The notes: generated by a model from the sequence alone, not told the origin. A DNA stretch of 64,000 nucleotides from an uncultured Acidobacteriota bacterium (GCA_963700145.1 OY969474.1:4224001-4288000); one strand, 5' to 3'. Counted from the first letter of the stretch, positions 13,657 to 59,402 are shown. Translations and numbers: made by a program.

Positions 13657-13683
13657 GGAAACCCTCCGCCGAAGGAGACGATC

Positions 13684-13782
13684 ATGCCCAGGAACCCCAA
13701 CTTGCTCGCCGATAAGCTCAAGGCTTGGAACACTTTAGTCGAGGGGGCGGCAAGCCCTACTACCTTAAGGGCAGCACCCTGA
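13684..13782 (+). pseudogene. Truncated small protein (MPRNPNLLADKLKAWNTLVEG...), resembling the N-terminus of the 48044 ORF
   Basis: AAGGAG RBS, ATG 13684; N-x-x-A-D/E-x4-W pattern shared with 48044; stops after 32 codons near the start of lower-GC DNA. Confidence 0.45.
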
Positions 13783-13875
13783 TCGGCGTCCTCTGGCAGC
13801 AAAACGCCGCTCCTCACTTCATCGTCGGCGAGAACCGCATCGCCCAGGGCGGTGGTCTTGGGTGCGGTGCTCTTC

Positions 13876-14609: not shown

Positions 14610-14683
14610 CAGACATCGCTACGTAAGGCAATAATATATAGTTGGCTCACCAAGCTATTGCGGTGCGGGCGGTTGGGGCTCCG

Positions 14684-15100
14684 TCATGCCAAGAGCTGGC
14701 GCTCTTCGAGCAGGCGGTAGTAGTCGCTCATGGAGAGAATCCGTAGCCCCTCGTAACCGGAGAGCGCCAGGAGGTCGGTGTCGTTGGTGACCAGGTAATC
14801 TGCGCCTGCCGCCAGAGCCGCTTGAAGAATGGGGCTGTCGTTCGGATCGGCCGGCACCTGGTGGCGGGAGGGCGCGGGCTCTACGAGAGTCGCACGGCGC
14901 CTGGCACGGCTGCGTGTGAGGAGGGCGAAGCGGTGTGAAAAACCGAGGCGCTCCACCATGACGCGCTCGATCTCGGCGAGTACATGGGGGCTGGTGAAGA
15001 TGCGCCAGGAGGCCCGTTGAGTCGCTTCGAGCATGCGTTCGGCGGCGTCACCGAGAAGAGCCTCCGCCACGTAGACGTTGGTGTCGAAGAAGACCTTCAT
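14684..15100 (-). CDS. PIN-domain toxin (PIN_3-like)
   Basis: VFFDTNVYV...DPNDSPILQAALAAGADYLVTNDTDLL. Confidence 0.88.
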   Translation of the reverse strand: MKVFFDTNVYVAEALLGDAAERMLEATQRASWRIFTSPHVLAEIERVMVERLGFSHRFALLTRSRARRRATLVEPAPSRHQVPADPNDSPILQAALAAGADYLVTNDTDLLALSGYEGLRILSMSDYYRLLEERQLLA

Positions 15101-15303
15101 TCACCATGGCGTACGGTGTGGACGGCACGATCGATGGCGCCTTGGTCGATTCCCCGGCTCTGAGCCACCCTCCGCGCACTGGCGGCTTCCTCGCGCCACT
15201 CCTGGTCCTCTCGCTGGGCGAGCAGCTCGTCGAACAGGAGGCGATCTTCCTCGGGAAGTTGGCTGATCCGATCGAGGATCTCGTCGACGGTTGCGCGACT
15301 CAT
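15097..15303 (-). CDS. Small antitoxin partner of the PIN toxin
   Basis: 68 aa, GGAGG RBS, stop overlaps the toxin ATG. Confidence 0.7.
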   Translation of the reverse strand: MSRATVDEILDRISQLPEEDRLLFDELLAQREDQEWREEAASARRVAQSRGIDQGAIDRAVHTVRHGE

Positions 15304-15339
15304 GAGTCCTCCAGGCAAAATTCTACCAGCAGAAGGTGG

Positions 15340-15570
15340 AGGAGAGGACGTGCGTGTCGGGAACCAGCGCGATCAGTTGTCCTCGTAGAGGTTTTCGCGG
15401 CGGAGCGCATCGAGCGGTGGGCTCGGTGCCGCGGTAGCCGGCGGAGCGTGCCGTCGAGCCAGTTGTTCAAATCGGCCGCCGAAGTCGCGCCGCGTGGTCC
15501 CCTCTGCGGCGGCTCGGCAATCACGATGACCTCGGCCTCGCCCGCTGGAAAGTCAGAAGGCAACGTCATA
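15340..15570 (-). pseudogene. Probable antitoxin remnant (LPSDFPAGEAEVIVIAEP)
   Basis: Motif resembles small antitoxin N-termini; no clean start or partner toxin. Confidence 0.3.
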
Positions 15571-15662
15571 GCCCCCGCGCCCGCGGGCCATGCGCCGGCC
15601 AAGCCGGCCCACATGCTAACCTAGCCGCAGAAATCGCGCAGTCAAAGGCGGGCGAGGAGCGG

Positions 15663-30849: not shown

Positions 30850-30926
30850 AGGCCCGTAGCTCAGTTGGTTAGAGCGCTACGTTGACATCGTAGAGGTCAG
30901 CGGTTCAAGTCCGCTCGGGCCTACCA
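30850..30926 (+). tRNA. tRNA-Val(GAC)
   Basis: AGGCCCG/CGGGCCT acceptor stem, CTACG-TTGACAT-CGTAG anticodon arm, GGTTCAAGTCC, encoded CCA. Confidence 0.97.
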
Positions 30927-30980
30927 TTTCGAGATCCAGAACGCGGCGATTCGAGGTCCACAACGCACTTCCGCATGTAC

Positions 30981-31057
30981 AGGCGCTTAGCTCAGCTGGT
31001 TAGAGCGCTACCTTCACACGGTAGAGGTCAGCGGTTCGAGTCCGCTAGCGCCTACCA
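30981..31057 (+). tRNA. tRNA-Val(CAC)
   Basis: AGGCGCT/AGCGCCT acceptor stem, CTACC-TTCACAC-GGTAG anticodon arm, GGTTCGAGTCC, CCA. Confidence 0.97.
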
Positions 31058-38499: not shown

Positions 38500-39447
38500 A
38501 TGGACGCCCCGCTCCCCCTCCCCCGGACCCTCCTAGAAGCCATCCGCTTCTACGCCGACCCCGACGTGGCGCTCGCCACGATGGTACGCCAGCGCTGGCC
38601 GAATGGCGTCACCTGCCCGACGTGCGGCAGCCCGGAGGTTCGTTTCCTGGCAACGCGCCGGCTGTGGGAGTGCAAGTTCAAGCACCCCCGCAAGCAATTC
38701 TCGGTCAAGGTTGGAACGATTTTCGAGGACTCCCCGCTCGGGCTGGACAAATGGCTGCCGGCGGTTTGGCTGATCGCCAACGCGAAAAACGGGATTAGCT
38801 CGCATGAGCTAGGCCGCGCGCTCGGCGTCACTCAGAAATCGGCGTGGTTTATGTTGCACAGAATCCGCACGGCAATGCAGGCCGGCAGCTTCGCCAAGCT
38901 CTCGGGCGAGGTTGAAGTGGACGAAACCTTTATCGGCGGTCGCGCTCGTTTCATGCACAAGAAGGAGCGCGCTCGGAAGATCAAGGGTCGCGGGCCGATG
39001 GGAAAGACGGCGGTAATGGGGCTCCTAGAGCGCCACGGCGAGGACGGCCATAGCCGCGTCCGTACCCGCGTCGTCCCCAACGTCAAGCGCAAGACCCTCG
39101 CCCCCGAAGTGCGGCAGCACGTCGAGCCGGGATCGGAAGTCTTTACGGATGCTCTGCGCTCCTACGGCGAGCTGGCGAATGACTACTGCCACCAGGTCAT
39201 TGACCACGCCGAATGCTACGCGAAGGGGCGGATTCATACCAACGGCCTAGAGAATTTCTGGAGCCTGCTCAAGCGGTCTATCAAGGGGACTTACGTGAGC
39301 GTCGAGCCGTTCCACCTGTTTCGTTACTTGGATGAGCAGACTTTCCGCTACAACCGGCGGAAGGTGGAAGACGTGGACCGCTTCCGCGACGTGCTTGCTA
39401 CCGTCGTCGGGCGGCGGTTGACCTATGCGGAGTTGACCTCAGCATAA
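38500..39447 (+). mobile_element. IS1595-family (ISXO2-like) transposase
   Basis: RWPNGVTCPTCG zinc ribbon, FSVKVGTIFEDS, VEVDETFIGG, VFTD, HTNGLENFWSLLKR, YLDEQTFRYN. Confidence 0.95.
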
Positions 39448-39466
39448 AGGAAAGAGGGGGAGCCGC

Positions 39467-39680
39467 ATGAAGGCGAAAAAGGTAGAGCCGCCAGCGGACG
39501 ATCCGAGGAATCCGCGTCAGTCGGCGAGTGCTCTGGCGAAGTTCCGCCAGAGCATGCGCGCTTTCGAGTCCCTGACGCGGCGCCTGCTCGCCGTACCGAA
39601 GACGGAGGTTGTGGCGCTCTTGCAGAAACAGCGGAGCAAACTGCGCACACGATCCAAAGTGGGCGCGAGTGTCTCGGTAG
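39467..39680 (+). CDS. Small basic protein downstream of the IS1595 transposase (end uncertain)
   Basis: GAGGGGAG RBS; FESLTRRLLAVPKTEV; the ORF extension to 39991 looks like read-through. Confidence 0.45.
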
Positions 39681-39699
39681 TCTGGTTAGAGAATACGGG

Positions 39700-40362
39700 T
39701 CGCGGTAGTTTCGCAGGGCGGGGGTGCGCGCGCCCGTCTGCGCGTCAAACAGGCGAAGGTCATAGTTCACGAGACGCGTCTGCAAATGAAGCGTGCTGGA
39801 AGCCTCTGGACGGAGTTGCTGGGGTGGCAATCAGTTTAGTTCTGTCGCGTCGCACCATCTTTCATCGATGCCGTCATTGGAAGGTGTACAAATCAATCAA
39901 ACAACCGGAGCGTTGGAGTCGCTGTTTTGGGATCGCCTTTCAGGGTGGTCAATCGCGCCGCGGTTCGTGGCTGAACAGCGGGCATGCCTAAGCTCGATGC
40001 AAGCACGCGTGAGCACGCCTTGTGAAGGCGAAAATGCAAAGCTTCTGACAAATGGGCCACTCGTCGTCACGATCGCCGTCCACAGAGTCGCGGCCTGGCT
40101 AGGTGAACAAGCTCTTACAGCTCGAGGTCAGGCCGGCGAGAGTGAAAAGTAGTGAAAGAACGCCTCGCCCAGCGCCCTCCCTGAGGCCAGGATCAAACCG
40201 ATCCTCAACCTCGCGCGCCAGGTGAGCTCCTCCACCTCGGCACAACGACAGACGCGAGACCCGCACGGCTTTCGACGATCTGCAACAGCTCAGTTCGCCG
40301 AACGATGAAGACCTGGATCAGGCAGTCGGGACGAAGAGTACGTGGTAAATGGGACATTCATT
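39700..40362 (-). pseudogene. Decayed PIN-like protein
   Basis: Fragments across frames: DCLIQVFIV, SVVVP, EVEELTW, LGMPLFSH. Confidence 0.35.
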
Positions 40363-40367
40363 CTGCC

Positions 40368-41538
40368 TCAGCAAGTAGGCGATGCCACGCCGCTGACAAA
40401 AAGGTCTTCACTAATCATGAGTAGGTGTGCGGCCCGGCCGAGACCGACAAGGTTTCTTACAGGCGTGAACAACCTCTTGGACGTAGTGGACGGTAGCAAA
40501 ATTGGCGTGTCGGGATGGTCGTTGTTCGCTTTCTCTTCCACGGCTCGGAGACTTCCTTTTCCATCTTTGCAGGTATTCGCGTCGAGAGGGCGCGGCCGTC
40601 CGGCCTGAGTCAGCCGCGATATCCAACGCCAGGAGATTCGGCTCGGCGCTCTTTTCCATAGGCGAGACTCAATCGCTCCCCAACAATGATCTTGGATCAA
40701 TTGAATTTCGGGAACAGCAGCGCGAATTGGCTGCTAGACATTGGGGAGTTTCAAGAGACGCGTGCTTCCGAGTGGCGTGCGCGAGCACTGTTTCGGAGCT
40801 GCCGCCTCTTGGGCGAACGCTTCCGCGCGCCTTTCCGACAAGTCGTCGTTCTTTCGGTGTTGAAGTATCGAGCGTTGCACGGTCAGAATCTAGATTGAAA
40901 ATCAGGTGCGCCAACTGGTGGAGTATGATTGCATTGGCGCCAACCAGTTGTGCTGCTATTGTTGGCAAGATGGCGGCGGTGCGAGGTGCCGACAGCAATG
41001 CGCAGCCAGAGCATCTTGGGACTGGGGATGGCGGTTCAACAATTCGAGCAGACCCTTGTTGCGAAGCACCCTTCGAGGTATGGTGCCGATTCGAAGAAGA
41101 CCGTAGTTCAGCTGCATCGGCTACGGATACCCTGGTGGCCACGCCCCCGTGCTCGCGCGGGAGACGCCTGCCGGTCGACTTCGCTCCTGATCCGTCGAAG
41201 AGCATTCTCCAACTGGAGGTCTCCTGAGAGCGATGCTCCGAGCTCTCATAAAAAGTGCCGAGCTGGCGATTAGCAGAACGAGCTCGCGATCGACAGGGCC
41301 GAAGCCGGGGCCGCGCAGCTCAACCAGACGGCCGGTGTAGGATCTTGTCGTCATCGGCTGCTAGGGGGTTAAATAGGTCGTCGGCGTTCACGCCCAGGAC
41401 AGAGGCAATGTGGGCTGCAGCAGAAGGGGGGAACGGCTGCTGTTCAGCCGCCCATTCTTGAGAGCAGGCGCGGCTGTAGCCGAGCAGCCCGGCGCAGGTC
41501 GGGATGTCGAGTTCGCTGACCTTGAGGTAAGGGTTCAT
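40368..41538 (-). pseudogene. Decayed HTH + ImmA/IrrE-like metallopeptidase
   Basis: N-terminal HTH-like CAGLLGYS...IASVLGVNADDLF; SGCALL...ILHQLAHLIF (HExxH-like); C-terminal GRAAHLLMISED. Confidence 0.45.
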
Positions 41539-43042
41539 CGGCAGTCGGTCCTCCGGTAAAGGGAACCCCGGCCCCGCCCAGGCTGGGCACTCTTCGCCCA
41601 GCCAGGAGCCCCGGAGAACTCTTCCCAAGGTAGATACGGTGCGCGGCCCCCTTCGTTTGGGGACACCGCTGCAACTCCATTGCCGACCAGGGGTTGAGAA
41701 GCGTGTGTCCCCGTTCGCCGTGCTGCCATTTTGTTCCTGTTGTTCGTCCGTCCACCGAGTTACCCGCCAATTCCGCTACTTCTGTAACAGAAGTATAGCG
41801 CCTGCCTCTCCATAGGACGAACGCGCGGGAGAGTTAATGGCTGCGCTGGCGGCGAGAATTTTTTTTTCTCGAATCCTCGATCTTGAAGAGTTCGAAGGGC
41901 CCGCCGAACGGCGTCGGCCTTCGAGCATCGTGCTCGCGGGTCAGCTCTTCAACGGCTCCAGTCATCGGGACGCAGGTAGATCGTCAGCCGGTGCAGCCCG
42001 TGGCCGGTTGTTGCGGCCCGGCCTTCCGCCTTCCGCGTTCGCCGCCATGCCGGGAGGATACAGAGACCCCCGACGCGGACGAGTCAGAGTGAGGTAGTGT
42101 GAGGCGCAGGAGGAACCTGCCATGCCTATCGATCCGCTGCCGCCGAGCAGCCCGAGCCCACAGAGCCCGCGCAGACGACCGGCGAGAACGAATGCGAGCC
42201 GGCGCGGCCTATGGGCCACATTCCAGAGCCCAAGCCGCGACGCACTACGACGAGCCCGTGAGCTCTCGGCGAGCTGACGGCCGAAGGCGCCGCGCGCATC
42301 GCCGCTGCCACGGCAGAAATTCACGACCTGATGGCCGGACTCAACTCTCTGGCGGCCCGCGTCGAGCGGCGACGATCCAGCTGGCAGCGGTGTGAGCGCA
42401 CCTCGCGGGACATACCGCGGGACATTCCGAAGTGGACCGGGAGACGTGTTCAGCCTGCGGGCGAGCTGCGAGGCGGAGCATTCGAGACGGACCGGAAGCC
42501 TTCGGCCAGTTGGACCTGGACAGGGCTTGCGGGAGGGACTGAAGCGGCGGCAACGCTGGCGTCCGACCAAGGACGCCAGCACCGTTCAACGCGTGGAAGC
42601 GGCGGAAGGAAGCCGACCAGGGAGATCTGCCAGTGCCGATGTTCAAGGCGGTCCGCGCTCGGGCCGGCGAAGCTGGTAGCGCCAGCGCGGAAGCGGACGA
42701 AGGGGAAGGCAAGGCGAAGGCGCTAGAGACTCTGCGCGACGGCTATGCGCCGTTCTGCCTGGCTTCTGGCGCTCGGCGTGGTGCTGCTCTTCCGGCGGTT
42801 CAAGGGCGCCACACATGATGCGGTACTTCGCAGGGCTGGACTCACCGCATGGGATCTGCTGGACGGCGAGACGGACCATCGCGGGCCAGCGGTCCTTCGA
42901 GTTAAGACCCGCAGGAGGAAACCGAGCGGCTGATGCGCTGGAAACAATGATGGACATGACGACGCGAGCGATCGACCGAAATCACCATCGGCGCAACGGT
43001 TTTGGGCTAGCCAGGGACGAACTGCTCCGACCGCCGGCCAGC

Positions 43043-44295
43043 CTATGCGAACAGATCGTCACCGAAGCCATGACAGCCGCAAGTAGTTCTTCGGTCCGTC
43101 GTCAGTGTTGGCGGCCAGTGTCGCAGCTCCAGGAACCACAACGTCCTTCGAGTCCCAAGAGCTACCTGGCGATTCCCGACAGCGAGTAACCGCACGCCAG
43201 CAGGCGTCTGCGCCAGCCGAACGATCTGGCGCATGTCGCGGATGGAGTACAAGCCACCATTCTCCCCTGCCGCGATCACAGTGCGAGGGTCATAGCGGAA
43301 CAGCGCCGAAATCGGGGAGGGAATAACCTCCCCAGAAACGGCTATGCCTGGCGACGACGATGAGAGGGCTACAACGGCACCTTGACGGGTGCCGACCAAG
43401 ACCTCCTCAGCATCCGTTGCCGCGAATGTTGTTGGTTCGTAGATAGGAGGGTAACCTTGGTAATGACGCTGCGCAAGTGAAAGTCGCCAGTAGCCCTCTG
43501 CTGGATTGCCGACGACGAGAGTAGGTCCGTCCGCAACTAGCGCCCAATTTTGGGCCGGCAAAATAAAATCGGCTCCCTCCTGCACGAGCGAGGCCCTGTC
43601 AGTCCGCCAGATTCTAATTCTCGATATTCGCGGTAGCGTATCAGCCAAGATCACTACCAGTCGACTATTCCCCAAAAACGAAAGCGCCTGAATTGGGTAT
43701 TTAACTCGCACGTTGCGGTGCCTCGCAAGGTCGAGACCTCCAGGACTCTGCAGGTCCTGCACTCTTGCGAGCGTCAATACTCCCGCGAAGTGCCAAGCTA
43801 CAAGCGGTTCATGTGGTGAAACGGCATAGGGCAATCGATTTGATTCCGGAGCAAACGCAGCTGTCTCTGCCCACAGAGAGGCGCGTGGGCTGTGGAGGGC
43901 GATGCGAGTGCTATCCCCTATATTCAAAAGCCGCGCAAAAGGCACTATTTGCACGACTGGTGACTCTTTGTGCTCCAGTGGCCACGATGTTATAGACAGA
44001 GAGAGATTGTGCTCGAATACAGCCGTTACAACGCCGGCTGGAGAAATCCAAAGATCGGCCAGAGTCTTATCTGAGTTCTGGCCAGTAACGACGCGCAGGG
44101 TACCGGCCCGGAGAAATGAGGCTTCCTTAGAAAGATAGATGCAGAGGGTCGTGGAAATGAGTACGGCGAGGAGAACAACGACAAAATTTACTCTAACACG
44201 AGGGGACCAATCTTGGAGGAAGAGGGAAAAGCTGACGTTATTCCATACGCGGGAGAGCCAAGGGCGGGCGTCGTGATTAATAGGTCCAGCCCCCA
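43043..44295 (-). CDS. Membrane-anchored beta-propeller (WD40-like) hypothetical protein
   Basis: Long lower-GC ORF; TM helix VVVLLAVLISTTLCIYL; strand motifs IQALSFLG, VLVGTRQGAV, VIAAGENGGL. Ends uncertain. Confidence 0.5.
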
Positions 44296-44858
44296 TCACA
44301 AGTATCATCGCCATAGCTGACTTGGTTAGCGCACACGGTACGCGAACCGTATGCCAAGCAGCAGATTCCATTTCTCGATAATCCGTATGCAATACGCATA
44401 TCTGCCGGTGCGAAGTATCTCATGGCGTCCGGAAGCGGTCTGATGTCTGGAAAGCTCCAAGCCTCGATTCCGCGCACCTCGAAGCGAACATTGATAGGAG
44501 TAAATCTGATAGACCACCCTATGGGCACTACTCGCTCCTCGCCGAGCTGAGAGACCGACTCATCACCACTCGGTTCCTGGAAAACCTGCAACAGCATCAA
44601 TCGGGGCCGCTGCGTGCCATCATCGATTACAGGGCTGAGAACCAGATACCTCGATCCATCTTGCTCCTGTACGGTTGCCCATAGACCGTCGCGAATTACC
44701 ACTTGGGCTCGCGTGTTGTCGGAGAATGTGATCTGGCCCTTTATTACGAAATCGGAGCGCGGAACGGCGAAGGCTTGCTCCGCGACTAGCGGTGCCGCCG
44801 TAGCCGGAGTCAATGAAACGACGAGGCCGGTCAGCAGTCGTGAAAGAGATCGGAGCAT
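44277..44858 (-). CDS. Secreted hypothetical protein with Cys-rich C-terminus
   Basis: Signal-like N-terminus; ends GICCLAYGSRTVCANQVSYGDDTCDGGWTY. Confidence 0.6.
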   Translation of the reverse strand: MLRSLSRLLTGLVVSLTPATAAPLVAEQAFAVPRSDFVIKGQITFSDNTRAQVVIRDGLWATVQEQDGSRYLVLSPVIDDGTQRPRLMLLQVFQEPSGDESVSQLGEERVVPIGWSIRFTPINVRFEVRGIEAWSFPDIRPLPDAMRYFAPADMRIAYGLSRNGICCLAYGSRTVCANQVSYGDDTCDGGWTY

Positions 44859-45109
44859 TAAGGTAAACCCAGACGGTGGCGGAGCGACGAGGTTGCGATT
44901 CCGCGGCTGGCATCGATGTTGGCGCGGGCCTCGGTCAAGCCGCCGTCGGCGTCGTCATCATGCGGCTCGTCGTCGAAAGGGGCGTGAAGGAGAGCGCGGC
45001 TCACCGGATCCCCAGTATCGCGCAGCGCCTCCAGCACGCGGAGCGCCGTCGGCAGGTCCTCCTCCGGAAGATCGTCGACGAGGCGACGGATGGCATCTCG
45101 CGGGCTCAT
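44858..45109 (-). CDS. Putative antitoxin (orphan)
   Basis: RDAIRRLVDDLPEEDL...APFDDEP...LTEARA...LRHRLGL, like antitoxins that precede RelE/ParE toxins. Confidence 0.6.
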   Translation of the reverse strand: MSPRDAIRRLVDDLPEEDLPTALRVLEALRDTGDPVSRALLHAPFDDEPHDDDADGGLTEARANIDASRGIATSSLRHRLGLP

Positions 45110-45136
45110 GACCTTCAAGATCATACCCCCGACCAC

Positions 45137-45905
45137 CTACGCCGCCGGCGCCGGCAGCACCCCCTCGACCTCGAACTGCGCCCGCGGGTAGCGGTAGGCC
45201 TGATGCGCGAAGACGTTGCGCCGGGAGAACTCCACCGCCCGGCGCGCGGCCACGCAGTACCAGGTCCTCGGCGGCTCGGGGCATCAGGCTGGCGAAGGCC
45301 CGCGCCGTGAAGAGGCCGAAGTTGGCGCCCCCGTCCACGTCCCGCGCCGAGCGGTAGCGGAGGATCTCGACCCCCGCGGCGCGGAGGTCGCAGCCGAGCT
45401 GCTGCGATGCCTCGTAGGCGACCGGCGAGGATATCTCCGCCGCGAACGCGGCGAAGGGCTCGCGCGTCCAGGTCCACTCCGCGCTCGGTGAGCACCCGGG
45501 CACGAAACGCCGACACGTCCCCCATCACCGGCTCCAGCGCGGCGCGGCTCCCCTCGAGGAAGAACAGCCGGTAGTAGGCCGCCTCGGCGAAGGCCGTGAC
45601 CAGCTCCTCGGCGCCGTACCAGATGCCGCGCTCGGCGCGGGTGCCGAAGCGCAGGCCGTGGCGAAGCGGCGGATAGCGGAAGGGCGTCAGCAGCAGGTAG
45701 TGGAGCCGCTGCGCAGCTCGGGCTCCGGCGGCAGCAGCGGGTTTCGCCCGCTCGATCAGTTCCTCGAGGAGCTGCTGCTCGGCGTCCGAATCGACGAGCT
45801 TGCGGGTCTGGACGAGGTGCTGCGCTTCCACCACCCGCCAGGGGCGGGCTTCCAGCCTCCCGATCCAACCCTGGCCGCGCAGCGCGTCCAGATAGTCGGT
45901 GGCAC
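45137..45905 (-). CDS. RES-domain toxin (MbcT/ParT-like), frameshifted
   Basis: IWTRC, WRVVEAQH, TRKLVDS, LLTPFRYPPLRHG, FAEAAYYR, YRSARD...N. Confidence 0.85.
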
Positions 45906-46235
45906 GGACCAGGCCCTGGGCGGTCTGGATGAGCTCGGCGGGCACGCCCGACAGATGGTCGTTGTAAGCCCGCAGCCAGAGCCGGGACTTCTCGGAGTCG
46001 CCGCCCAAGAGGGCGTCGAGGCTGCGGAAGACCCGCAGGAAGAGGAGCGCCGGTTCCTCCTTGCTGGCGGGGTCGATGATCCGCCGGCCGGTCGTGATCC
46101 GGGATAGCGACGAAGCGCTGACCCCCAGCGCGGCAGCCGCTCCCGGCCCGAGCCGAGGAGGTCGGCTGCACGCTCGGTGGCCTTGGTCAGGACGGCCGGG
46201 GCTGAAGGCGAGGGCTCGGGCAGAGGGGCGCTCAT
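45865..46235 (-). CDS. Xre/MbcA/ParS antitoxin, frameshifted
   Basis: VLTKATERAADLLG, LGVSASSLSR, LFLRVFRSLDALLGG, WLRAYNDHL, YLDALRG. Confidence 0.82.
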
Positions 46236-50896: not shown

Positions 50897-50968
50897 CGTC
50901 ACCGAGCATCCGGCTCTGTGGCAGAATACGCGGCGCTAATCTGCTCAAAGCCGGAGACAAACTACCGC

Positions 50969-52414
50969 TTGCGCGAGCACCCGACGCCCCAAACCCTCGA
51001 CCGCTTCTTGCGCGGAGAGCTGCCGGCGACCGAGGGCGTCGGCGTGCTCCAGCACCTCGTCCGCGGCTGCCGCCCTTGCCTGGCGGCCGTCTCGCGGCAT
51101 CTCTATGGGACCGGGCAGCCGAAGGACCTCGACGGCGCCGGGCAGATCTACGACGCCGTTTTCGATCGCGCTTTCGGCATCGACGGCAAGGCCGCCAAAG
51201 ACCGCCGGAAAGAAGCACGCCTCGTCGAGGAGGCGTACACCGCGCTCGTGGCCGAGGGGCCTTCCGGGATCTTCCGTGCTTCCGTCCGCCGCTTCGACAG
51301 CCTGACGTTTTGTCGCGCTTTTCTGCGCCGGAGCTGGGAGCTGCGGCACGAAGACCCTGCCAAGATGCTGCACTTCGCGCGGCTCGCTGTCATGGCCTCA
51401 AGCTTCCTCAAGGTCGAGCGCCTCGGCAAGGCGAAGGTCGCCGACCTCCAGGCCCGCGCTCTCGCGGAGCAGGCGAACGCGCAGCGCATCAACGGCGATC
51501 TGGCGGGCGCGCAGAGGGCCATAGAGCAGGCTCTCGAGCTGCGGCGGGGTGGCACGCAGGATCCCTTCCTCGGAGCTCACCTGCTCACGATTCAGGCCAC
51601 GATCTTCGTCAGCAGGCGCCGCTTCCCGGAGGCGCTGGAGCTCCTGGAGGGAGTCGAGAGGACCTACGCTGCGTTCGGCAAACACCACGAGGCGGGCCAA
51701 GCCGCCGTTCAACGAGGTCTCTACACAGGTTACGGCGGCGATGCCGAGGAGGCGGTGCGCCTCCTGCGCCGCGGGCTAGGCCTCATCGACGAGACGGCGG
51801 ACCCCCAACTCGCATTGGTCGCAGTCCACAACATCGCGTGGTTCCTGATGGAGTCCGGCCGGCACACTGAATCTCGCATTCTGCTCTTCAGGAACAGAGC
51901 GCGCTACAACCAGCACGCCGACCGCATCATCCTCCTGAAGCGCACTTGGCTCGAGGGGCGTATCGCCGCTGGACTAGGGAACTTCGACCGTGCCGCTAAG
52001 CGCTTGGCCGAAGCGATGCAAGGCTTCGAAGAAGCCGAGCTCGGCTACCAGGCCGCCCTCGCCGCCCTCGACCTGGCCGCTGTCTGGCTTGAGCAAAACC
52101 ACTCGCCGATGGCCGCCACCCTCGTCGAGCAAGCCGCCGAGACCTTCACCGCGATCGGCGTCAACCGCGAAGCCATCGGCGCCCTCATCCTCCTCCAGAA
52201 AGCCTGCGAAAAAGGCCTAGCCACCGCCGCCTGGGTCCACCGCCTAACCACCCACCTCCGCCCCCTGGAGTACGATTCCTACGACCCGTTTCAATCAAGA
52301 GTAGGTACGGAGAGCCACCGAGCGAGGGCTCAATGCCCTAGCCCCTCGCCTGCTGACAAGTCAGCGTCAGTGCCCAAGGAGCCTGGCGAGTCGGCGACGC
52401 GGAGCCGGTGCTGA
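50969..52414 (+). CDS. Zinc-finger (HLxxGCxxC) + TPR-like protein
   Basis: HPTPQTLDRFLRGEL...QHLVRGCRPC; helical repeats; WLEGRIAAGLG, LAALDLAAVWL. The last ~45 codons run into the island. Confidence 0.75.
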   Translation: MREHPTPQTLDRFLRGELPATEGVGVLQHLVRGCRPCLAAVSRHLYGTGQPKDLDGAGQIYDAVFDRAFGIDGKAAKDRRKEARLVEEAYTALVAEGPSGIFRASVRRFDSLTFCRAFLRRSWELRHEDPAKMLHFARLAVMASSFLKVERLGKAKVADLQARALAEQANAQRINGDLAGAQRAIEQALELRRGGTQDPFLGAHLLTIQATIFVSRRRFPEALELLEGVERTYAAFGKHHEAGQAAVQRGLYTGYGGDAEEAVRLLRRGLGLIDETADPQLALVAVHNIAWFLMESGRHTESRILLFRNRARYNQHADRIILLKRTWLEGRIAAGLGNFDRAAKRLAEAMQGFEEAELGYQAALAALDLAAVWLEQNHSPMAATLVEQAAETFTAIGVNREAIGALILLQKACEKGLATAAWVHRLTTHLRPLEYDSYDPFQSRVGTESHRARAQCPSPSPADKSASVPKEPGESATRSRC

Positions 52415-52612
52415 GAACCGTTGCCGTTCGAGCGGCCTGGTGAAGTCCAGTGGCGCGGGAAGACCCCATAGGGCCGCCTGCTTGACCAAGGCACTTTTCT
52501 CAGCTACTGTAAAGTCCTCGACTGCGGCCTTTGACTGACACGCCCGGCGAGCGATATCTAGCTCGCGCGCACGCCACATTACTAGAGCAACAAACCCAGG
52601 ACACCAGCGCTC

Positions 52613-54487
52613 GTGGCGAACACAACTATAGTTTCTGAATACGATTGGGAGTACGACGTCTTCGTCAGCTATACAAGGTTCGACGAAACGCTGACCGGCC
52701 TCGTGCAACACATGACCGAGGCCTTGAGGACTCACTATAAAAGGCTAACCGGCCGCCCATTGCGAATATTCCAGGACACGGAGGCCTTACCCACCGCAGC
52801 GCTTTGGCAGGATCGGATCCTAAGCGCACTCCGCGGCAGCGCTACGTTACTGGCGATCTATACACCATCGTATTTTCAATCGGAATGGTGCGCCCGAGAA
52901 TGGGATTTCTTTCTGGCAATGGAACCAGAACGACGGCAGAAGTTCCACCTGGGCGACTTCGACTCATTAGTATTTCCTATCATAGCTGCAGAGGGCATCA
53001 CTTTTCCCGACGCCTCATCTATCCAGCATACCCGGCAGAGCGAGTTGCAAGCACGACAGGCTCTTCGCTTTGTCGACCTCGATCCTACTAGCTTATCCTA
53101 TGCAAAACATATCGCGACACTCGCCAGGCATCTCGCGCGAATCCTCGCGTTAGTGGCCCAAGTACCTATTTCTGATACCCCTGATGGCGGCTACAAGCCA
53201 CAACTAAACATTCCGCTAGTAACGACCTCCGGACGATCTGACGTTCATAGGCTAACAACCCTTCTAGCAGATGCCGAGTCAGCCATCATTATTGGCGTGA
53301 CAAACGACGAGCTTAGCGTCATTCTTGAACCCTCCCTAAAAGCCAAGCGCCTCAAAGCACGCGATGAAGGTGCCTTTTGGGATAGCTTGCGCATTGTCTT
53401 TCTCGCAGAGGACCTCCTCGCCTTTGTGGAGGATCACTTCACCACCGAAATCTCTAATCCGCGAGAGGCGCATCACCGCCGAGCGCGGCACGCCGGGCAG
53501 ATACAGCGACAGATCATGTCGCTCCTGATACGCCAGGGTGCACCTGGGCATTGGCGTCTCTACGCCTACCCGTACGCCCTTCCCTTCGCAGGCTACCTCT
53601 TTACGATGCCAGATGGCCGACGTATTGTTCAGCTAGAGATTGCCCGGGCCTCGCGAATGCCTGGCGACAATGTCTATATTCAGTTTGTCGATCGTGTGGA
53701 TACTCAGCTTGATGAGGCGTTTAGAGAAGTGGTGTCCTCAAGTCAGGAACAGCACGAGATTGTCCTCATTGGCACACCTGGCGTCGAGCCAGGCAGCTTC
53801 GCGTGTAGAGGTGCTCGTTTCCGTCGCAGCGTGCTTCTAGGAGGGCACAACACAGCCGACTTTCTGCCCTGCATCGTGGCCATCACCTGGCGAGCGTCGT
53901 TACGAGGTGTCGAACCGCTTCTTCAGCTGAACACCCCATCCAACTCTACGCGGGAAATGGGGAAGGCATCCCACGTAAGTGGCTATATCAACGAGCGGGA
54001 CTACTGGGCGGCCCTCCCGACCCAAGCCGACCGGTCCTCGGGTGAGGAGATGTGGCTCACACCTTCGGTCGCGGTCGCTGCATTGCACCGAGAGCTACAA
54101 AGCGACTTCGGCATCGAGGACAGCAGGGGTGCCGTGAATCTAGTTGCCACGGTGCCCTTCTACTACGCTGATAAGGAGAACCTTTTCTTTTTTGTTCTCG
54201 AGCGGGAAATACCAGCGGCGCATTTGTTTAGTGCTAACTCGCGGATGTTCGGTTGGTCTATTGATGAGTTACTCGCTGCTCGCTTTCGTCAAGTACTCCA
54301 AAATGCTATAGCTGCTTTACAGCACCCTCTCACTGCCCGCCAACGGGAGCGAGCCCTGAAGATGCTAACTCTTAATCTTCATGCGCACGGCCAACACGAC
54401 CTGGCTGATATGCTTCATCGACTAGGTGAGAGCCTCGGCAACGACCAAGCGGCGATACTGGCCTTGCACCACGCCGCCGCCAAATGA
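52613..54487 (+). CDS. TIR-domain protein fused to a central alpha/beta domain and a Nudix-like domain
   Basis: YDVFVSY...IFQD...W...TPSYFQSEWCAREW (TIR with catalytic Glu); PLLQLNT...SHVSGYI...AALHRELQSDFGI (degenerate Nudix box). Confidence 0.8.
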   Translation: MANTTIVSEYDWEYDVFVSYTRFDETLTGLVQHMTEALRTHYKRLTGRPLRIFQDTEALPTAALWQDRILSALRGSATLLAIYTPSYFQSEWCAREWDFFLAMEPERRQKFHLGDFDSLVFPIIAAEGITFPDASSIQHTRQSELQARQALRFVDLDPTSLSYAKHIATLARHLARILALVAQVPISDTPDGGYKPQLNIPLVTTSGRSDVHRLTTLLADAESAIIIGVTNDELSVILEPSLKAKRLKARDEGAFWDSLRIVFLAEDLLAFVEDHFTTEISNPREAHHRRARHAGQIQRQIMSLLIRQGAPGHWRLYAYPYALPFAGYLFTMPDGRRIVQLEIARASRMPGDNVYIQFVDRVDTQLDEAFREVVSSSQEQHEIVLIGTPGVEPGSFACRGARFRRSVLLGGHNTADFLPCIVAITWRASLRGVEPLLQLNTPSNSTREMGKASHVSGYINERDYWAALPTQADRSSGEEMWLTPSVAVAALHRELQSDFGIEDSRGAVNLVATVPFYYADKENLFFFVLEREIPAAHLFSANSRMFGWSIDELLAARFRQVLQNAIAALQHPLTARQRERALKMLTLNLHAHGQHDLADMLHRLGESLGNDQAAILALHHAAAK

Positions 54488-54720
54488 CAGGTCTTCAAAT
54501 TCTCGACGGTGACGAGTTTGAGGTTAACGGTTTGGCGGGCCTGCAATACCGCATCTTTTTCTCACACCTACTTCCACTGTACGCAAAGCTCGGAGTCATT
54601 GGAGCCAGTGCTGAGCTGATGGCTCTAAACACTGATAAGCGGCGAATCCAAGCGGCTGAGTCACTAAGTGAGCTGTACGCTACGGAGGCATATATGCTAT
54701 CGTTACCAATCGAGGTGTAA
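54484..54720 (+). CDS. 78-aa ORF, or frameshifted C-terminus of the TIR protein
   Basis: ATGA overlap with the TIR gene; fills the gap to the methyltransferase exactly; no obvious RBS. Confidence 0.55.
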   Translation: MTGLQILDGDEFEVNGLAGLQYRIFFSHLLPLYAKLGVIGASAELMALNTDKRRIQAAESLSELYATEAYMLSLPIEV

Positions 54721-54723
54721 GAA

Positions 54724-55386
54724 ATGAACGAGATCGGGGCTTTTTTCGACAGAGTCTACGCGAACACCGAACGATATTGGTGGCGCGTACCGCATGCGCA
54801 TTCGACTGTCCCTGAAGACCATGCCGACTCGCTCATCACACAGCAGGTCCTTCGCTTTGCGCGAATGCGAGGAAGTGGGAGAGCGCTCGACCTGGGAGCA
54901 GGTGAAGGGCACGACGCCGTCCGGCTTGCGCTGCTAGGATGGAAGGTCGAAGCAGTCGAGATGAGTCAAAGCGGGGCCAAGAAGACCCAACGTCTCGCAG
55001 AGAGCCTTGGCACAGAGGTCACTGTACACTGTGCTAATGCGGAAACTTTTGAGCCAACCGAAGCTTTTGATTTGATCGTATGTAACGGCCTCCTTCACTA
55101 TGTTACCGATAAGCGAAGGCTCTGCCAGCGCATGCAAGAGTGGACTGTTATAGGCGGACTTAACGCGATTGCGCTTTGGAGCGATTTCACGCCGGTTCCT
55201 GAGTGTCACCGTATCGTCCCAACTTTTCCGGATCGGGAGCGAGGAGAAGTTGTAGCCGCATACAGCCATTGGCAAATCGAGCTGCTATACCTTGAACGGA
55301 ACCGTGTTGACTTGGCACATGCTGATATGCCGAGTCACGTTCACAGCTACATCAAGTTAATCGCGGTAAGGCCGAGTGTCTGCTGA
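54724..55386 (+). CDS. Class I SAM-dependent methyltransferase (TehB-like fold)
   Basis: ALDLGAGEGHDA, VEAVEMS, FDLIVCNGLLHY; GAGG RBS. Confidence 0.85.
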   Translation: MNEIGAFFDRVYANTERYWWRVPHAHSTVPEDHADSLITQQVLRFARMRGSGRALDLGAGEGHDAVRLALLGWKVEAVEMSQSGAKKTQRLAESLGTEVTVHCANAETFEPTEAFDLIVCNGLLHYVTDKRRLCQRMQEWTVIGGLNAIALWSDFTPVPECHRIVPTFPDRERGEVVAAYSHWQIELLYLERNRVDLAHADMPSHVHSYIKLIAVRPSVC

Positions 55387-55476
55387 GGACAAGCCGTGTT
55401 AGATTGGACCGGCAGGTTCGGGCCCTCGGCCCACGCCCGAGAATTTGGTTCTTAGGAAAGCGAGGAGTACCCAGCG

Positions 55477-55978
55477 ATGGCGACAACCTGGAGAGATGTA
55501 GTTGACGAGAACGATTTTGTTATCGGGCGTGCCCCGAAGGAACATTTCGACGGAGTGACGCTAATCTGCCGGGTCGCCTTCATTATGCTAGCGAACAGTA
55601 AGGGTGAGTTGCTGCTTCACCAACGCTCGTCCAACAAACGGTTCTATCCGTTGCACTGGTCAGGGACTGCTGGCAGGACACCTTCATAGCGGAGAGAGCT
55701 ATGAAGAGGCCGCGCATAGAGAACTTCGAGAGGAGCTTGGAGCCTTCGCCGACCTCGAATTCGTCGGCAAGTTCTACTCGCCCGAGGACCATGAGATGGT
55801 GGGAGTTTTCCTTGGACGCTACGATGGTGAACTGAGGGTCGAGCCTCACGAGGTGGTACAGGTTCGCTACTTCAGCCCAGAAACTCTAGAGCGTGAGCTG
55901 CCTACCATGTTAGTTACTAGCTTTCTGGAGCGCGCACTTCCGTTGATCCTACCTCGGCTGTCGCAACACGCCGAGTGA
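55477..55978 (+). CDS. Nudix hydrolase (YfcD/IDI-like), one frameshift near 55670
   Basis: GAGGAG RBS; DVVDEND, GELLLHQRS, then AGHLHSGESYEEAAHRELREELG (complete Nudix box). Confidence 0.85.
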
Positions 55979-56278
55979 AGCAGACGCTGTCTGGCGATGT
56001 CACGGCGTCTTCAGAGGGAATAGTCAAGAGACTAACACGATGGGACCTCAGTTCGCGTTGTGCCGAGCCTTCAGGGCCGGCAAAATTCGAAGCATGCTTC
56101 GCTGTCACGACGCCGATTTCAGTCAGCACTGCGGCTTCCTGCATGGCGCCTCGATCAGGCCTGCCATTGACTGGGATGCGCTTCCCAGGTAGATTCAGAC
56201 AAGGTCAGAAGATCGGGCATACGGAACACCTCGCCGCCTTTAGCGCAGAATGCACTCACCAGGGAAAGCGGGATACCA

Positions 56279-56789
56279 ATGATTGAGCGGACGCTTATTG
56301 TCATTAAACCCGATGGCTTGGCACGCGGACTCTCGATGGCAATCCTTGCGAGATTCGACATGGTGGGCCTGAAGCTAGAGGCTATCAAGATGATACGGCC
56401 GACTGCGGAGCAGGCAAAACATCACTATCTATATGAGGACATTGCTTCTCGCCATTCCGAAACCGTCTGGATACAACTTATAGAGTACCTTACCGAGGCG
56501 CCGGTGATTGTCGCTGTGTTCTCGGGTGTTTCTGCAATTGAAGTGGCCAGAAAGCTTGTCGGATCGACCGAACCGAGGAATTCACCTCCTGGAACAATTC
56601 GAGGCGATTACTGTCACCAATCCTATGCTGTTTGTGATCGGGCTGGCAAGGCTCGTCCGCAATCTTATACATGCCTCTGCCAACGCAACGGATGCAGAAC
56701 GGGAGATTGCTGTTTGGTTTGCACGAGATGAAATCTTCGCCTATCGAAGGGTTGACGATTTCGAACATTACCTCGGAACGGCAGAATGA
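56279..56789 (+). CDS. ndk: Nucleoside diphosphate kinase, one frameshift near 56655
   Basis: ERTLIVIKPDG, PGTIRGDY, RNLIHAS (catalytic His), AEREIAVWF. Confidence 0.9.
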
Positions 56790-56793
56790 CATA

Positions 56794-57438
56794 GTGGGCG
56801 ACTTTCTTTCAGAGATTCTTCGCCTCTCCGAGACCCCAACGTGTCGGCTGTCGGTGGAAGCTGCACTAAAGAAACTCGGCGTCCTCAATCCAGATGAGCA
56901 GTTGATATTTCATCGAGACTTGGCTGCTTGGCATCGGAGCGGTGCTGAGACCTACAGCTGCTCCGCCGAGCTGACCATTGCCGGCGCGAGCGGAGCGACG
57001 CTATGCCGCACCCTCATATGTAAGGCTGTCTTCACTTTCGGTCCATTGTCCGATCAGAGCCTTTCGAGATGGTTAGAGCGGTACGCCCTTTTGGCCGAAA
57101 ATGGAGTGCAGGTACCTCATGTATATTTTGCCGATCGCGGGGTAATTGTTCAAGACTATATAGAGCACTCTCTTCCTGACTTTCTAGCAGGCTGCTCGGC
57201 GGAGACTGCGGTCGCGGTCGCAACACAGATCCATCGGCTCGCACAAGTTCTCGACAAGCTCGGGTTCCTACCCGTCATGTTCATTCCCGACTTGCGTATC
57301 GCCTCCGACAGTACATGCTTCGTTGTGGATGTCGGCGAGGATCTTGGCCCTCCCGGCCGTGCACCGAAGGGTGCGCGGAATTCCACACGTCAAGCTGAAG
57401 AATTTTTCGCCAAGCTCGGTGGAGCCACTGCTTGGTAA
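56794..57438 (+). CDS. Protein-kinase-like fold hypothetical protein
   Basis: SGAETY, LICKA, GVQVPHVY, IVQDYI, PDLR, VVDVG in kinase subdomain order; GTG 4 nt after the ndk stop. Confidence 0.6.
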   Translation: MGDFLSEILRLSETPTCRLSVEAALKKLGVLNPDEQLIFHRDLAAWHRSGAETYSCSAELTIAGASGATLCRTLICKAVFTFGPLSDQSLSRWLERYALLAENGVQVPHVYFADRGVIVQDYIEHSLPDFLAGCSAETAVAVATQIHRLAQVLDKLGFLPVMFIPDLRIASDSTCFVVDVGEDLGPPGRAPKGARNSTRQAEEFFAKLGGATAW

Positions 57439-57863
57439 GCGCATGGCAGGCCGGCCTAGCTCCTGAAAAGACCTAGCGCTGCGAAAAAGGCAGCCAGAGT
57501 GCCCATTAATGGATCAAGACCAAAGAATTTCGGAGTGTCCACTTGCCGCCGACTTGTCTCGTAGAGCTAGGCGGGGTTAGCTAGTCCTAAGCGCTACCGA
57601 GCCAACTCGACAGATCAGGTGCTCGGCCTTCGCAGCATCACAGCCCTAGGACGAGGTTCGGCATGATCGATGAGAAACTGCACTAACCGTTCGTCGATCG
57701 GGCGTGAACTATCATGGCGAAAGACGGGTCGTACCCACGGAAAACGCGCAAAGGTGCGCGAATAGGCCATAGATCTCATGCTGGCCGTCAAGGATCGGCT
57801 GTCGGCACATGTTCGGAAGAAGTTGAGCAGACGGTGCGCGCCGGTGATCGGCGCAAGGCGGTC

Positions 57864-58298
57864 TCAGCGCCGCCGCGACTTGACCGGCTCTGACGGGGCG
57901 CTGCGGGTGGGGGCTTGGTGGGCTAGAAGGTCCCGGATCTCGCCGAGGAATCGCTGCAGCTCCTGCGACATCGCGGCTGGCCCCTCCGGCGGCAGGGCGT
58001 GGGCCTTCGGGTTGAAGACCTGGAGCTTGCGGCCGGTTGGGCTCGGGGCGGCGGACTCCGGGGGGTAGGCGAGGTTGAAGAACTCGGCGGGGCGCAGCTC
58101 GACGGCTTGCAGGATCTCGAGGACGCGCCGCAGCTTGAGCTCGAAGGAGCCGGAGAGGAGCCGCCAGATGTAGCCGGGGCTCTGGCCGATGCGGCGCTCG
58201 ATCTCGGCGGTCGGGACCTCCGACATCTTGATGACCGCCTTGAGCAGCTCGGAGAGGCGAGCGATCTCGGCGGAATGGTCGTCGGGCTTGGCGGGCAC
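57864..58298 (-). CDS. XRE-like helix-turn-helix protein
   Basis: EIERRIGQSPGYIWRLLSGSFELKLRRVLEILQAV...EFF. Confidence 0.7.
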   Translation of the reverse strand: MPAKPDDHSAEIARLSELLKAVIKMSEVPTAEIERRIGQSPGYIWRLLSGSFELKLRRVLEILQAVELRPAEFFNLAYPPESAAPSPTGRKLQVFNPKAHALPPEGPAAMSQELQRFLGEIRDLLAHQAPTRSAPSEPVKSRRR

Positions 58299-58340
58299 GG
58301 CAGTTTCGAGACTACAGGATTCTGGCGTCAGGCGCGAGAG

Positions 58341-59402
58341 TTATGGCCCCCGGCGCAGGTCGGCGCCCACCGCTTCGCCGACGCTCGCGAGCCCGTCCCG
58401 CTCCAGCAGCTCCAGCAACTCCTCGTTGATCCGCCGCACGACGCCGGGGCCGCGGTAGACGAGGGCGGTGTAGAGCTGGACCAAGGAGGCGCCGGCGCGG
58501 AGGCGGCGGTAGGCCTCGGCGCCGGAGTCGATGCCGCCGACGGAGATCAGGACCGCGCGGCCGGCGAGGCTTGGCGCCAGCGCCCGCAGCATCCGGTAGC
58601 TCTTCTCGCGCAGCACCTGGCCGGAGAGGCCGCCGCCTTCCTGCGCTCCGGCGAGGAGCGCGTACTCGGTCGTGGTGTTGGTGGCGACGATGCCGGCGGC
58701 GCCGGCGGCGACGGCGGCCTCGGCCAGGGCCACCGCCGTCTCCTCCTGAAGGTCGGGGGAGAGCTTGACCAGGACGGGCTTCTCGGTCACCTCCGCCGCG
58801 GCGGCCAGGACCTCGCCGACGAAGGCCTCGTTCTGGAGGTCGCGCAGGCCGGGCGTGTTGGGGGAGGAGAGGTTGACGACCAGGTAGTCGGCGAGCGGCG
58901 CCAGGCCGCGCAGGAGCTTGCGGTAGTCGGCGAGGGCGTCGCGCGGCGGTGTCGTGCGCCCCTTGCCGACGTTGATGCCGACGGGCAGCGGGTACGGGCG
59001 CTGGGCCGCGAGGCGCGCGGCGAGCGCGGCCATCCCGGCGTTGTTGAAGCCGAGCGCGTTCTGCAGGCTCTCGGCCTCGGGGTGGCGGAAGAGGCGCGGG
59101 CGCGGGTTGCCGGCCTGGGGGTGCGGCGTCACGGTCCCGACCTCGACGAAGCCGAAGCCGAGAGCGGGCATGGCGCCGACGGCGCGGCCGTCCTTGTCGA
59201 AGCCGGCGGCGAGCCCGACCGGGTTGGCGAAGCGCCGCCCGAAGAGCTGCTGCACGAGGCGCGGATCGTCCACCAGGTGTCGCGCCGCCAGCCGCTCGCC
59301 GAGCGACGGCAGCGCCGCCACGGCCCGCAGCCCACGCAGCGCCAGCTCGTGGCCGGCCTCCGGGTCGAGCCGGAAGAGCAGCCCCCTGAGCGGGTAGCTC
59401 AT
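58341..59402 (-). CDS. pyrD: Quinone-dependent dihydroorotate dehydrogenase
   Basis: DPEAGH, NPVGLAAGFDK, EVGTVTP, NLSSPNTPGLR, KLSPD, GGLSG, VQLYT. Confidence 0.96.
   Translation of the reverse strand: MSYPLRGLLFRLDPEAGHELALRGLRAVAALPSLGERLAARHLVDDPRLVQQLFGRRFANPVGLAAGFDKDGRAVGAMPALGFGFVEVGTVTPHPQAGNPRPRLFRHPEAESLQNALGFNNAGMAALAARLAAQRPYPLPVGINVGKGRTTPPRDALADYRKLLRGLAPLADYLVVNLSSPNTPGLRDLQNEAFVGEVLAAAAEVTEKPVLVKLSPDLQEETAVALAEAAVAAGAAGIVATNTTTEYALLAGAQEGGGLSGQVLREKSYRMLRALAPSLAGRAVLISVGGIDSGAEAYRRLRAGASLVQLYTALVYRGPGVVRRINEELLELLERDGLASVGEAVGADLRRGP

Follow-up and report, generated by a model that had tools for sequence, protein, structure and literature searches.

An acquired island with two proposed nucleotide-centred modules

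A 64,000-nt stretch of the genome of an uncultured Acidobacteriota bacterium (GCA_963700145.1 OY969474.1:4224001-4288000; hereafter the window, with positions counted from its first letter) carries a horizontally acquired island at 52415-57863, in which genes for a TIR-domain protein (TIR-X), a methyltransferase, a Nudix hydrolase, a nucleoside diphosphate kinase (NDK) and a small kinase-like protein follow one another. With about even confidence, we read the island as joining two acquired, nucleotide-centred modules, of which the first (TIR-X, methyltransferase and Nudix) would be a rare, undescribed conflict cassette, most likely serving abortive-infection defence against phages. A defence role had already been proposed in an earlier reading of the window made from the DNA alone (the sequence-only reading). 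Its strongest evidence now comes from the part of TIR-X behind the TIR domain, here called X, which consists of a PLD-like domain, a degenerate Nudix fold and a helical end. The family speaks for a conflict role because an invariant X module with exchangeable N-terminal heads is the usual architecture of immune sensors.

The X profile, built from five natural members lacking the TIR domain, was searched against 1.84 billion cluster representatives and matched 192 of them at E ≤ 1e-3, 86 of these at E ≤ 1e-30. From the 150 listed among these 192 matches, the longer ones and a distant group, 61 proteins altogether, were scanned with Pfam. The head was a TIR domain in 29 proteins and CHAT in two, with SIR2_2, EAD7, EAD11, HTH_31 and TPR found once each; three proteins gave only a weak Pfam NUDIX match at the position of the Nudix-like domain, and 22 had no Pfam match. 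The whole X profile was matched in the CHAT (P0055), SIR2 (P0064) and HTH (P0048) forms, with E values from 1e-107 to 1e-135, while for both EAD forms and the other CHAT form the match lay mainly in the PLD-like part. PADLOC (2023 models) recognised the SIR2 head as ThsA (3.4e-9) and the CHAT head as chat (4.4e-18). EADs are presented as adaptor domains of conflict systems in one study (PMC7159879).

Linkage of the island genes in other genomes

Linkage within module 1 was followed by tblastn within 8 kb of nine TIR-X loci in species-representative genomes. TIR-X was accompanied by its C-terminal piece at all nine loci, and the methyltransferase and the Nudix gene were each found at eight; at the ninth (L016) the contig ends 233 nt past the X gene. 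The methyltransferase directly adjoins TIR-X in eight of the nine, at 49-58% identity, and both enzymes are kept with X where the TIR domain is missing (L010 and L013). Module 1, comprising TIR-X, the methyltransferase and Nudix, is a recurrent actinomycete unit. A hint of the same linkage, not a test of it, is that at least nine of the 120 listed relatives of the methyltransferase (183-303 aa; 133 matches at E ≤ 1e-10) lie on contigs equal in size to TIR-X-bearing ones. The genes around the unit vary from locus to locus (chitinase, M15 peptidase, PucR regulator, glycosyl hydrolases, XRE/DUF5753 regulators, PNP_UDP phosphorylase), and the L015 cassette is flanked by transposases. In the Pedococcus locus (L013:6365-15114), X lacks a TIR domain, and 10 nt separate its gene from the end of an alpha/beta-hydrolase gene upstream; the cassette there is followed by a gene for an unassigned 1023-aa protein and, 3.3 kb downstream, by a Druantia DruD gene (1.5e-126).

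A TIR-X/methyltransferase fusion at locus L012 (P0009) might have pointed to a functional link, but this evidence was discarded, as the deletion that created it removes the first 55 methyltransferase residues, including the GxGxG motif.

The NDK, the kinase-like protein and a 103-aa open reading frame (ORF) at 55975-56286 were found at none of the nine TIR-X loci. Conversely, TIR-X, the methyltransferase and the cassette Nudix were absent from all 13 loci recovered in a metagenome scan with the kinase-like protein, where an NDK or a 340-aa NDK-fold protein adjoins the kinase gene in 11. Since six of these 11 are close relatives, they represent about six independent lineages. The kinase gene has a canonical-type NDK beside it in L027 and L030, and the 340-aa partner in L019-L026 and L028; the profile of this partner matches NDKs in the PDB at 8e-4, and one member also matches Pfam NDK. 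The other two loci are L018, which has neither form, and L029, where the kinase gene is cut by the contig start. Module 2 is a separate, recurrent pair of an NDK-fold protein and a RIO/Bud32-like kinase that has not been described before.

Both modules occur together only in the island and in a second (sister) assembly, represented by a 48,009-nt contig with few substitutions relative to the window. All gene types named by the sequence-only reading (TIR, methyltransferase, Nudix, NDK, kinase-like) are present, but the 0/9 and 0/13 counts do not support the five as one conserved system. That reading had also counted five or six genes; the five named types stand, and the sixth falls away, as the 103-aa ORF was rejected for want of any Pfam, PADLOC or tblastn support.

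Composition and insertion site

The host genome is complete (5.46 Mb; GC content 71.5%). The 5.45-kb island has a GC content of 0.551 versus 0.715 for the genome, and GC as low as this is reached by 0.04% of 10,901 sliding 5.4-kb genome windows. Per-gene values range from 0.50 to 0.56, and the foreign composition is uniform over both modules. The AT-richness and the co-directional gene order reported at first reading were both borne out: the DNA is foreign to its host in composition, and every reading frame of the island lies on the plus strand.

The island is flanked by the gene of a TPR protein (50918-52414) and by a gene for a 144-aa protein (57864-58298, minus strand), the latter protein having 15 matches in the genome, itself included. 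In two genomes of the same genus (L032 and L034), the flanking genes are separated by gaps of 78 and 52 nt without an island, and they are also neighbours in two genomes of the same family (L037 and L038); the remaining three flank loci were too short or lacked a TPR match. The island is an insertion of foreign DNA between host genes that are adjacent in relatives. No tRNA gene near the island, no integrase or transposase inside it and no convincing flanking repeats were found, and an Rfam scan of 51500-58500 gave no match. Promoter-like and terminator-like sites in the island region occurred at chance level. No full-length relative of TIR-X was found in 40 related genomes (eight had matches at the level of the TIR domain only), nor in 400 further genomes sampled from the actinomycete phylum.

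A contig from a soil metagenome (run X1) is identical to the window over 57803-57900; to the left of this it runs into unlike, GC-rich sequence that was not found in the window, and its source may be a relative lacking the island.

Architecture of TIR-X

The TIR-X gene (52613-54487, plus strand) is present as an ORF of 624 aa with a Pfam TIR_2 match at residues 16-110 (E 2.4e-10). Its homologues, of about 700 aa, share about 45% identity with it, and all ten named ones come from actinomycetes. A 78-aa ORF directly downstream (54484-54720, plus strand) matches the final ~70 residues of every full-length homologue; therefore, the window TIR-X is a severed 702-aa gene and the small ORF its detached C-terminal helical end. 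A structure model computed from 16 sequences (pLDDT 72.8) was compared with known folds by VIA-align and predicts four parts, namely TIR, PLD-like, Nudix fold and helical end. Neither the PLD-like middle domain nor the origin of the 78-aa ORF from the TIR protein had been part of the sequence-only reading. An atlas search with the X part yielded a best score of 0.80 and nothing usable.

The TIR domain (52634-53158, plus strand; residues 8-182) resembles the TIR structures of TIRAP, RPP1, MyD88 and SARM1 at Z 14.2-13.3, with 9fqm giving Z 14.2, a root-mean-square deviation (rmsd) of 2.9 and 142 aligned residues. The fold also lies near nucleoside 2-deoxyribosyltransferases and MilB (Z 9.3-11.5). 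The Glu that follows a WxxxE-type motif is the catalytic residue of TIR NADases; in TIR-X, Glu96 of a WCxxE motif is invariant in the 16 sequences and falls in the same alignment column as the motif Glu in BtpA/TcpB, AtTIR and TLR2. As far as can be judged from the model and alignment, the output of TIR-X is probably NAD+ cleavage.

The PLD-like domain (53186-53725, plus strand; residues 192-371) is closest in fold to the N-terminal domain of SauUSI (7clg, Z 9.4) and to TrmBL2 (5bpd, Z 9.0), and no His or Lys in it is invariant among the aligned TIR-X sequences. The Nudix-fold domain (53750-54292, plus strand; residues 380-560) is best matched by YfcD (2fkb; Z 11.0, rmsd 3.1, 140 aligned residues), followed by the isopentenyl diphosphate (IPP) isomerases 2dho (Z 10.7) and 1hx3 (Z 10.2) and by 3e57 (TM1382) and 5t3p, both at Z 8.8. 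The Nudix box has the consensus GX5EX7REUXEEXGU. In TIR-X, G457-x5-D463 is separated from R493-E494-L-x-x-D498-F-G-I by about 29 residues, where the consensus has 7, so that one Glu is lost and an insert of about 22 residues gained. Residues 380-560 of the window protein have no Pfam NUDIX match, and the relatives P0072, P0176 and P0180 match it weakly at the same position. The TIR-Nudix fusion announced from the sequence thus holds at the level of the fold, but not as a canonical Nudix domain, the box being degenerate.

The methyltransferase and the stand-alone Nudix hydrolase

The second gene of module 1 (54724-55386, plus strand) is intact and encodes a class I methyltransferase dependent on S-adenosylmethionine (SAM), of 220 aa, with Pfam matches to Methyltransf_25 (2.8e-13) and TehB (9.5e-11; 41.9 bits vs a cut-off of 20.4). 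Against the NCBIfam TehB equivalogs it stays far under the cut-off (49.5 of 303 bits); judged by these family models, the protein is TehB-like, not TehB.

The Nudix gene is broken (55477-55978, plus strand; ORFs 55477-55689 and 55604-55978; Pfam NUDIX 8.9e-16), with the canonical box GHLHSGESYEEAAHRELREELG in the second frame. Its best sequence matches in the PDB are 1q27 (DR_0079, 1.3e-13) and 2fkb (YfcD, 1.7e-13), and the intact homologue in L009 matches the NCBIfam YfcD model at 3.8e-23; the stand-alone gene stays under the cut-off of that family (82 of 152 bits). Models of ADP-ribose pyrophosphatases scored poorly (YffH/AdpP 1e-3, NudE 2.9e-3).

Module 2: a nucleoside diphosphate kinase and a kinase-like protein

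A 300-bp spacer (55979-56278) separates the two modules. The first gene of module 2 is the second NDK gene of the genome and is broken (56279-56789, plus strand; ORFs 56279-56731 and 56508-56789; Pfam NDK 2.8e-28 and 1.2e-4): one frame holds positions 1-107 of the Pfam model; the other holds positions 109-135 and, beyond the break, the catalytic-His motif NLIHAS. The host's own intact ndk is located at genome position 4607966.

The small kinase-like protein is encoded at 56728-57438 on the plus strand (ORF 56671-57438), with ATG 56728 or GTG 56794 as the start. It gave a model with pLDDT 86, a small fold of about 220 aa, whose best VIA-align matches (Z 12.7-11.0) include RIOK3 (12.7), Rio1 (12.5), Bud32 (11.8 and 11.2) and ArkI (11.3); Foldseek likewise returned RIO2. 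Invariant in 13 sequences are K99, D188, D201-x-G203-x-D205-L206 (with G207 nearly so) and a WxxGAExY motif. No Pfam, NCBIfam or PADLOC family matched at E ≤ 0.01, and a search of 5.8 billion proteins returned three relatives besides the protein itself and the corresponding frame of the sister assembly. The fold, the Lys and the DxG motif are shared with RIO, Bud32 and ArkI kinases; the island protein differs from them in matching none of their family models, in having WxxGAExY in place of the Gly-rich loop and in the NDK-fold partner beside it.

Among the neighbours of the kinase pair are GTP cyclohydrolase II with a guanylate-kinase-like gene (L019), a Nudix gene with a metallophosphoesterase gene (L029) and a CYTH gene (L018); integrase, IS element, prophage protease and nSTAND1 protein genes also occur in its contexts. 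At L026:6185-8654, a ThsA-like SIR2 protein (248 aa, 3.2e-23) is encoded directly upstream of the 340-aa NDK-fold protein and the kinase, and this row may be a small defence system of its own. The trio adjoins an IS element and an nSTAND1/FGE-sulfatase protein.

Decay of the island copy

The sister assembly served as the reference for the lesions. It has an intact TIR-X of 702 aa (P0036), an identical methyltransferase and a 70-aa Nudix fragment like that of the window, and its NDK region (frame P0032) is one base shorter than the window's, which suggests an unbroken NDK there. In the window, three genes carry four lesions between them, all on the plus strand. TIR-X is interrupted by a TGA stop at 54485-54487, where P0036 reads Arg, and by a 1-nt deletion relative to P0036 at ~54500-54501. 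The Nudix gene has a 1-nt insertion near 55672, also present in the sister assembly, and homologues read YPLYWSGAAAGHL across this break. In the NDK gene, one inserted nucleotide near 56653 precedes the catalytic-His motif.

The sequence-only reading had spoken of frameshifts, and these are real in the assembly at hand. It is improbable that they arose in assembly and that this organism has a complete, functional cassette, even if single-base indels make up three of the four lesions and the sister assembly has an intact TIR-X and probably an intact NDK. The lesions appear to be true decay because one of them is a substitution (CGA to TGA, as inferred from the Arg in P0036), one is common to two assemblies, where the Nudix break leads to the same 70-aa product, and none lies in a long homopolymer run; on these grounds, decay is likely. 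Host ORFs of 600-1035 aa are unbroken over the rest of the window, which also argues against assembly error. So does the damage in other copies: L010 lacks TIR residues 56-193, L011 has its Nudix in two frames, and L012 carries an X-methyltransferase deletion fusion without the SAM motif. Damage of this kind is in keeping with a system that is costly or toxic to its own cell. In run X1 (share 0.07), four identical pieces were found (54832-54982, 56662-56812, 56920-57070 and 57803-57900), none of which spans a lesion. With TIR-X, Nudix and NDK broken, the system is probably inactive in this genome, to judge by its reading frames.

Comparison with known systems

PADLOC, run on nine island proteins, gave only a weak ThsB match over the TIR part (1.6e-5) and a generic mad2 methyltransferase, and full-text literature searches turned up no published system with this gene set. 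The impression at first reading that no described system corresponds to this set has therefore been upheld. Module 1 looks, with roughly balanced confidence and from this comparison, like an NADase-type conflict system with a small-molecule sensor and an undescribed gene set.

The nearest parallel in logic is Kongming. According to the preprint on it (bioRxiv 10.1101/2024.12.20.629578), a deaminase, phage dNMP kinases and the host NDK produce dITP. The dITP is sensed by a HAM1 pyrophosphatase in which a catalytic residue is replaced, and this sensor activates a SIR2 NADase; the HAM1 proteins are described as active pyrophosphatases that evolved into dead sensors. The preprint also reports KomBC modules without the deaminase beside nucleotide-modifying genes, SAM methyltransferases among them. 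The logic proposed for module 1 is like that of KomA (adenosine deaminase), KomB (HAM1-like) and KomC (SIR2), in that a base modifier, a dead sensor with a pyrophosphatase fold and an NADase are combined. No component is homologous, however: a Nudix fold takes the place of HAM1 in the sensor, the effector is a TIR, not a SIR2 domain, and none of the Pfam families of KomA, KomB and KomC occurs among the island proteins. The cassette further differs in the fusion of effector to sensor, in a methyltransferase instead of a deaminase and in an extra active-type Nudix and a PLD-like domain.

What the cassette has in common with Thoeris is a bacterial TIR domain bearing the conserved Glu (NCBIfam ThcB4 2e-8, TIR part only), but the ThsA-type partner of Thoeris (SIR2, transmembrane (TM) or Macro with SLOG) is absent from the nine island proteins by PADLOC. 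Moreover, the TIR domain of TIR-X looks like an effector rather than a signal maker because it occupies the head position taken by SIR2 and CHAT elsewhere in the family. In the type III CRISPR system CAAD (Cad1), a base-modified NTP (ITP) is made and processed by a Nudix enzyme, according to a review (PMC13276650); no CARF domain, deaminase or CRISPR genes are found in the island. YfcD of E. coli (2fkb) and DR_0079 of Deinococcus (1q27) are the best sequence matches of the stand-alone Nudix. For the Nudix-like domain of TIR-X, whose box is degenerate and interrupted, YfcD again gives the top structural match.

Proposed mechanism and alternative explanations

The sensor role of X, the NADase output, the ligand and the defence role are what we infer from these observations. 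In the proposed mechanism, X would act as a ligand sensor that restrains the N-terminal effector, here a TIR domain with the conserved Glu that would cleave NAD+ when released. The TehB-like methyltransferase would produce the ligand through methylation of a nucleotide or of a small molecule derived from one, and the canonical Nudix, taken to be of one subfamily with the Nudix-like domain, would hydrolyse stray ligand, so that the system does not trigger itself. Module 2 would probably phosphorylate a nucleoside or nucleotide stepwise and may feed module 1 in this island. A functional link between the modules is possible, given their shared composition and the SIR2 gene beside the kinase pair in L026. 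A more specific form of the mechanism is immune signalling by a methylated nucleotide, which kinases of the island, host or phage would convert into the triphosphate; the dead Nudix domain would sense it and free the TIR NADase (in relatives, a SIR2 NADase or a CHAT protease), and the active Nudix would reset the signal. This form is conceivable, but we consider it unlikely.

Several results weigh against the proposed conflict cassette or parts of it. No relative of TIR-X or of the kinase was found in viral contigs, and among PLSDB plasmids TIR-X had only a match at the level of the TIR domain and the kinase none. PADLOC on 74 ORFs flanking the nine TIR-X loci recognised a convincing known defence gene only in L013. 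The methyltransferase resembles small-molecule methyltransferases generally, with no sign of a nucleotide substrate. An hhalign comparison of X with the stand-alone Nudix was not significant and covered the box helix only (19 columns, E 0.073), and the Nudix-like domain of TIR-X retains R493, E494 and D498, with which catalysis could persist. Finally, since modules 1 and 2 meet only here, any functional link between them would draw on juxtaposition and shared composition.

The sequence-only reading had placed all five genes in one pathway, in which a TIR-derived or methylated nucleotide is phosphorylated by the kinase and the NDK to give a signal or an antiviral analogue and a Nudix serves for processing or self-protection. 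The genes are co-directional and of like GC content and probably arrived together; the pair of NDK-like protein and kinase elsewhere stands beside genes that act on NAD or nucleotides (ThsA-like SIR2, Nudix with metallophosphoesterase, GTP cyclohydrolase II with a guanylate-kinase-like gene, CYTH), and an NDK is needed for the Kongming signal. Yet the 300-bp spacer divides the genes into two sets, and neither set was met with the other at the nine TIR-X and 13 kinase loci, which leaves the single pathway distinctly unlikely. Another explanation, depletion of NAD+ followed by disposal of the products, would have the Nudix act on ADP-ribose and the methyltransferase on nicotinamide, thereby blocking the reconstitution of NAD+ by the phage. 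It agrees with the conserved Glu of the TIR domain, with the active-type Nudix box and with the small-molecule kind of methyltransferase, and NAD+ synthesis by phages has been described as a counter-measure (PMC9503650). Nevertheless, the Nudix is of the YfcD/DR0079/IPP-isomerase type and scores poorly with ADP-ribose models, the nicotinamide N-methyltransferase family is not among the Pfam matches, and the CHAT, EAD and HTH heads on X are left unexplained, so the chance of this explanation is slight.

Just as slight is the chance of a metabolic or natural-product cassette tailoring a nucleoside or nucleotide metabolite in actinomycetes. The purely actinomycete origin of the named homologues speaks for it, as do the mostly ordinary flanking genes (chitinase, M15 peptidase, PNP_UDP phosphorylase, glycosyl hydrolases) and the nearness of the TIR fold to nucleoside 2-deoxyribosyltransferases and MilB. 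The true TIR structures, however, score higher (Z 13-14), and Pfam assigns the domain to TIR_2; CHAT, SIR2 and EAD heads are hallmarks of conflict systems, the flanks show no conservation among loci, and no biosynthetic core enzyme is adjacent.

Other features of the window and genome

Two further low-GC patches were observed in the window. An IS1595-type transposase (38500-39447) is followed by a patch at 39.4-45 kb with a GC content of 0.56-0.62, whose ORFs include ones without a Pfam match, such as that at 43043-44392 (minus strand, 449 aa). Next to it, at 45121-46008 on the minus strand, lies a RES-domain ORF with a piece of an Xre/MbcA/ParS antitoxin. RES toxins target NAD+. The region 38500-46008 is probably another mobile or conflict island. 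The third low-GC patch of the window, at 13641-15624, contains a PIN_3 toxin-like gene (14684-15100, minus strand) and three overlapping ORFs of the same strand (13641-14609, minus), which may be one broken gene. Tandem tRNA-Val genes (GAC, CAC) at 30850-31057 are unrelated to the island. With 27 Pfam TIR_2 matches over the cut-off, the genome as a whole is unusually rich in TIR-domain proteins.

Implications

NADase defences of the TIR and SIR2 kinds are already known, as is one base-modified nucleotide that serves as an immune signal, that of Kongming. If the methylated-nucleotide form of the mechanism is true, the Kongming principle would have evolved a second time, independently, in module 1, with Nudix, TIR and methyltransferase components in place of HAM1, SIR2 and a deaminase. 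A recurrent cassette in which an exchangeable effector head is joined by a degenerate Nudix sensor, a methyltransferase and an active Nudix would add a new sensor fold, and maybe a messenger that is methylated rather than deaminated, to bacterial immunity. The window copy, for its part, shows the decay of such cassettes after their transfer to a new host.

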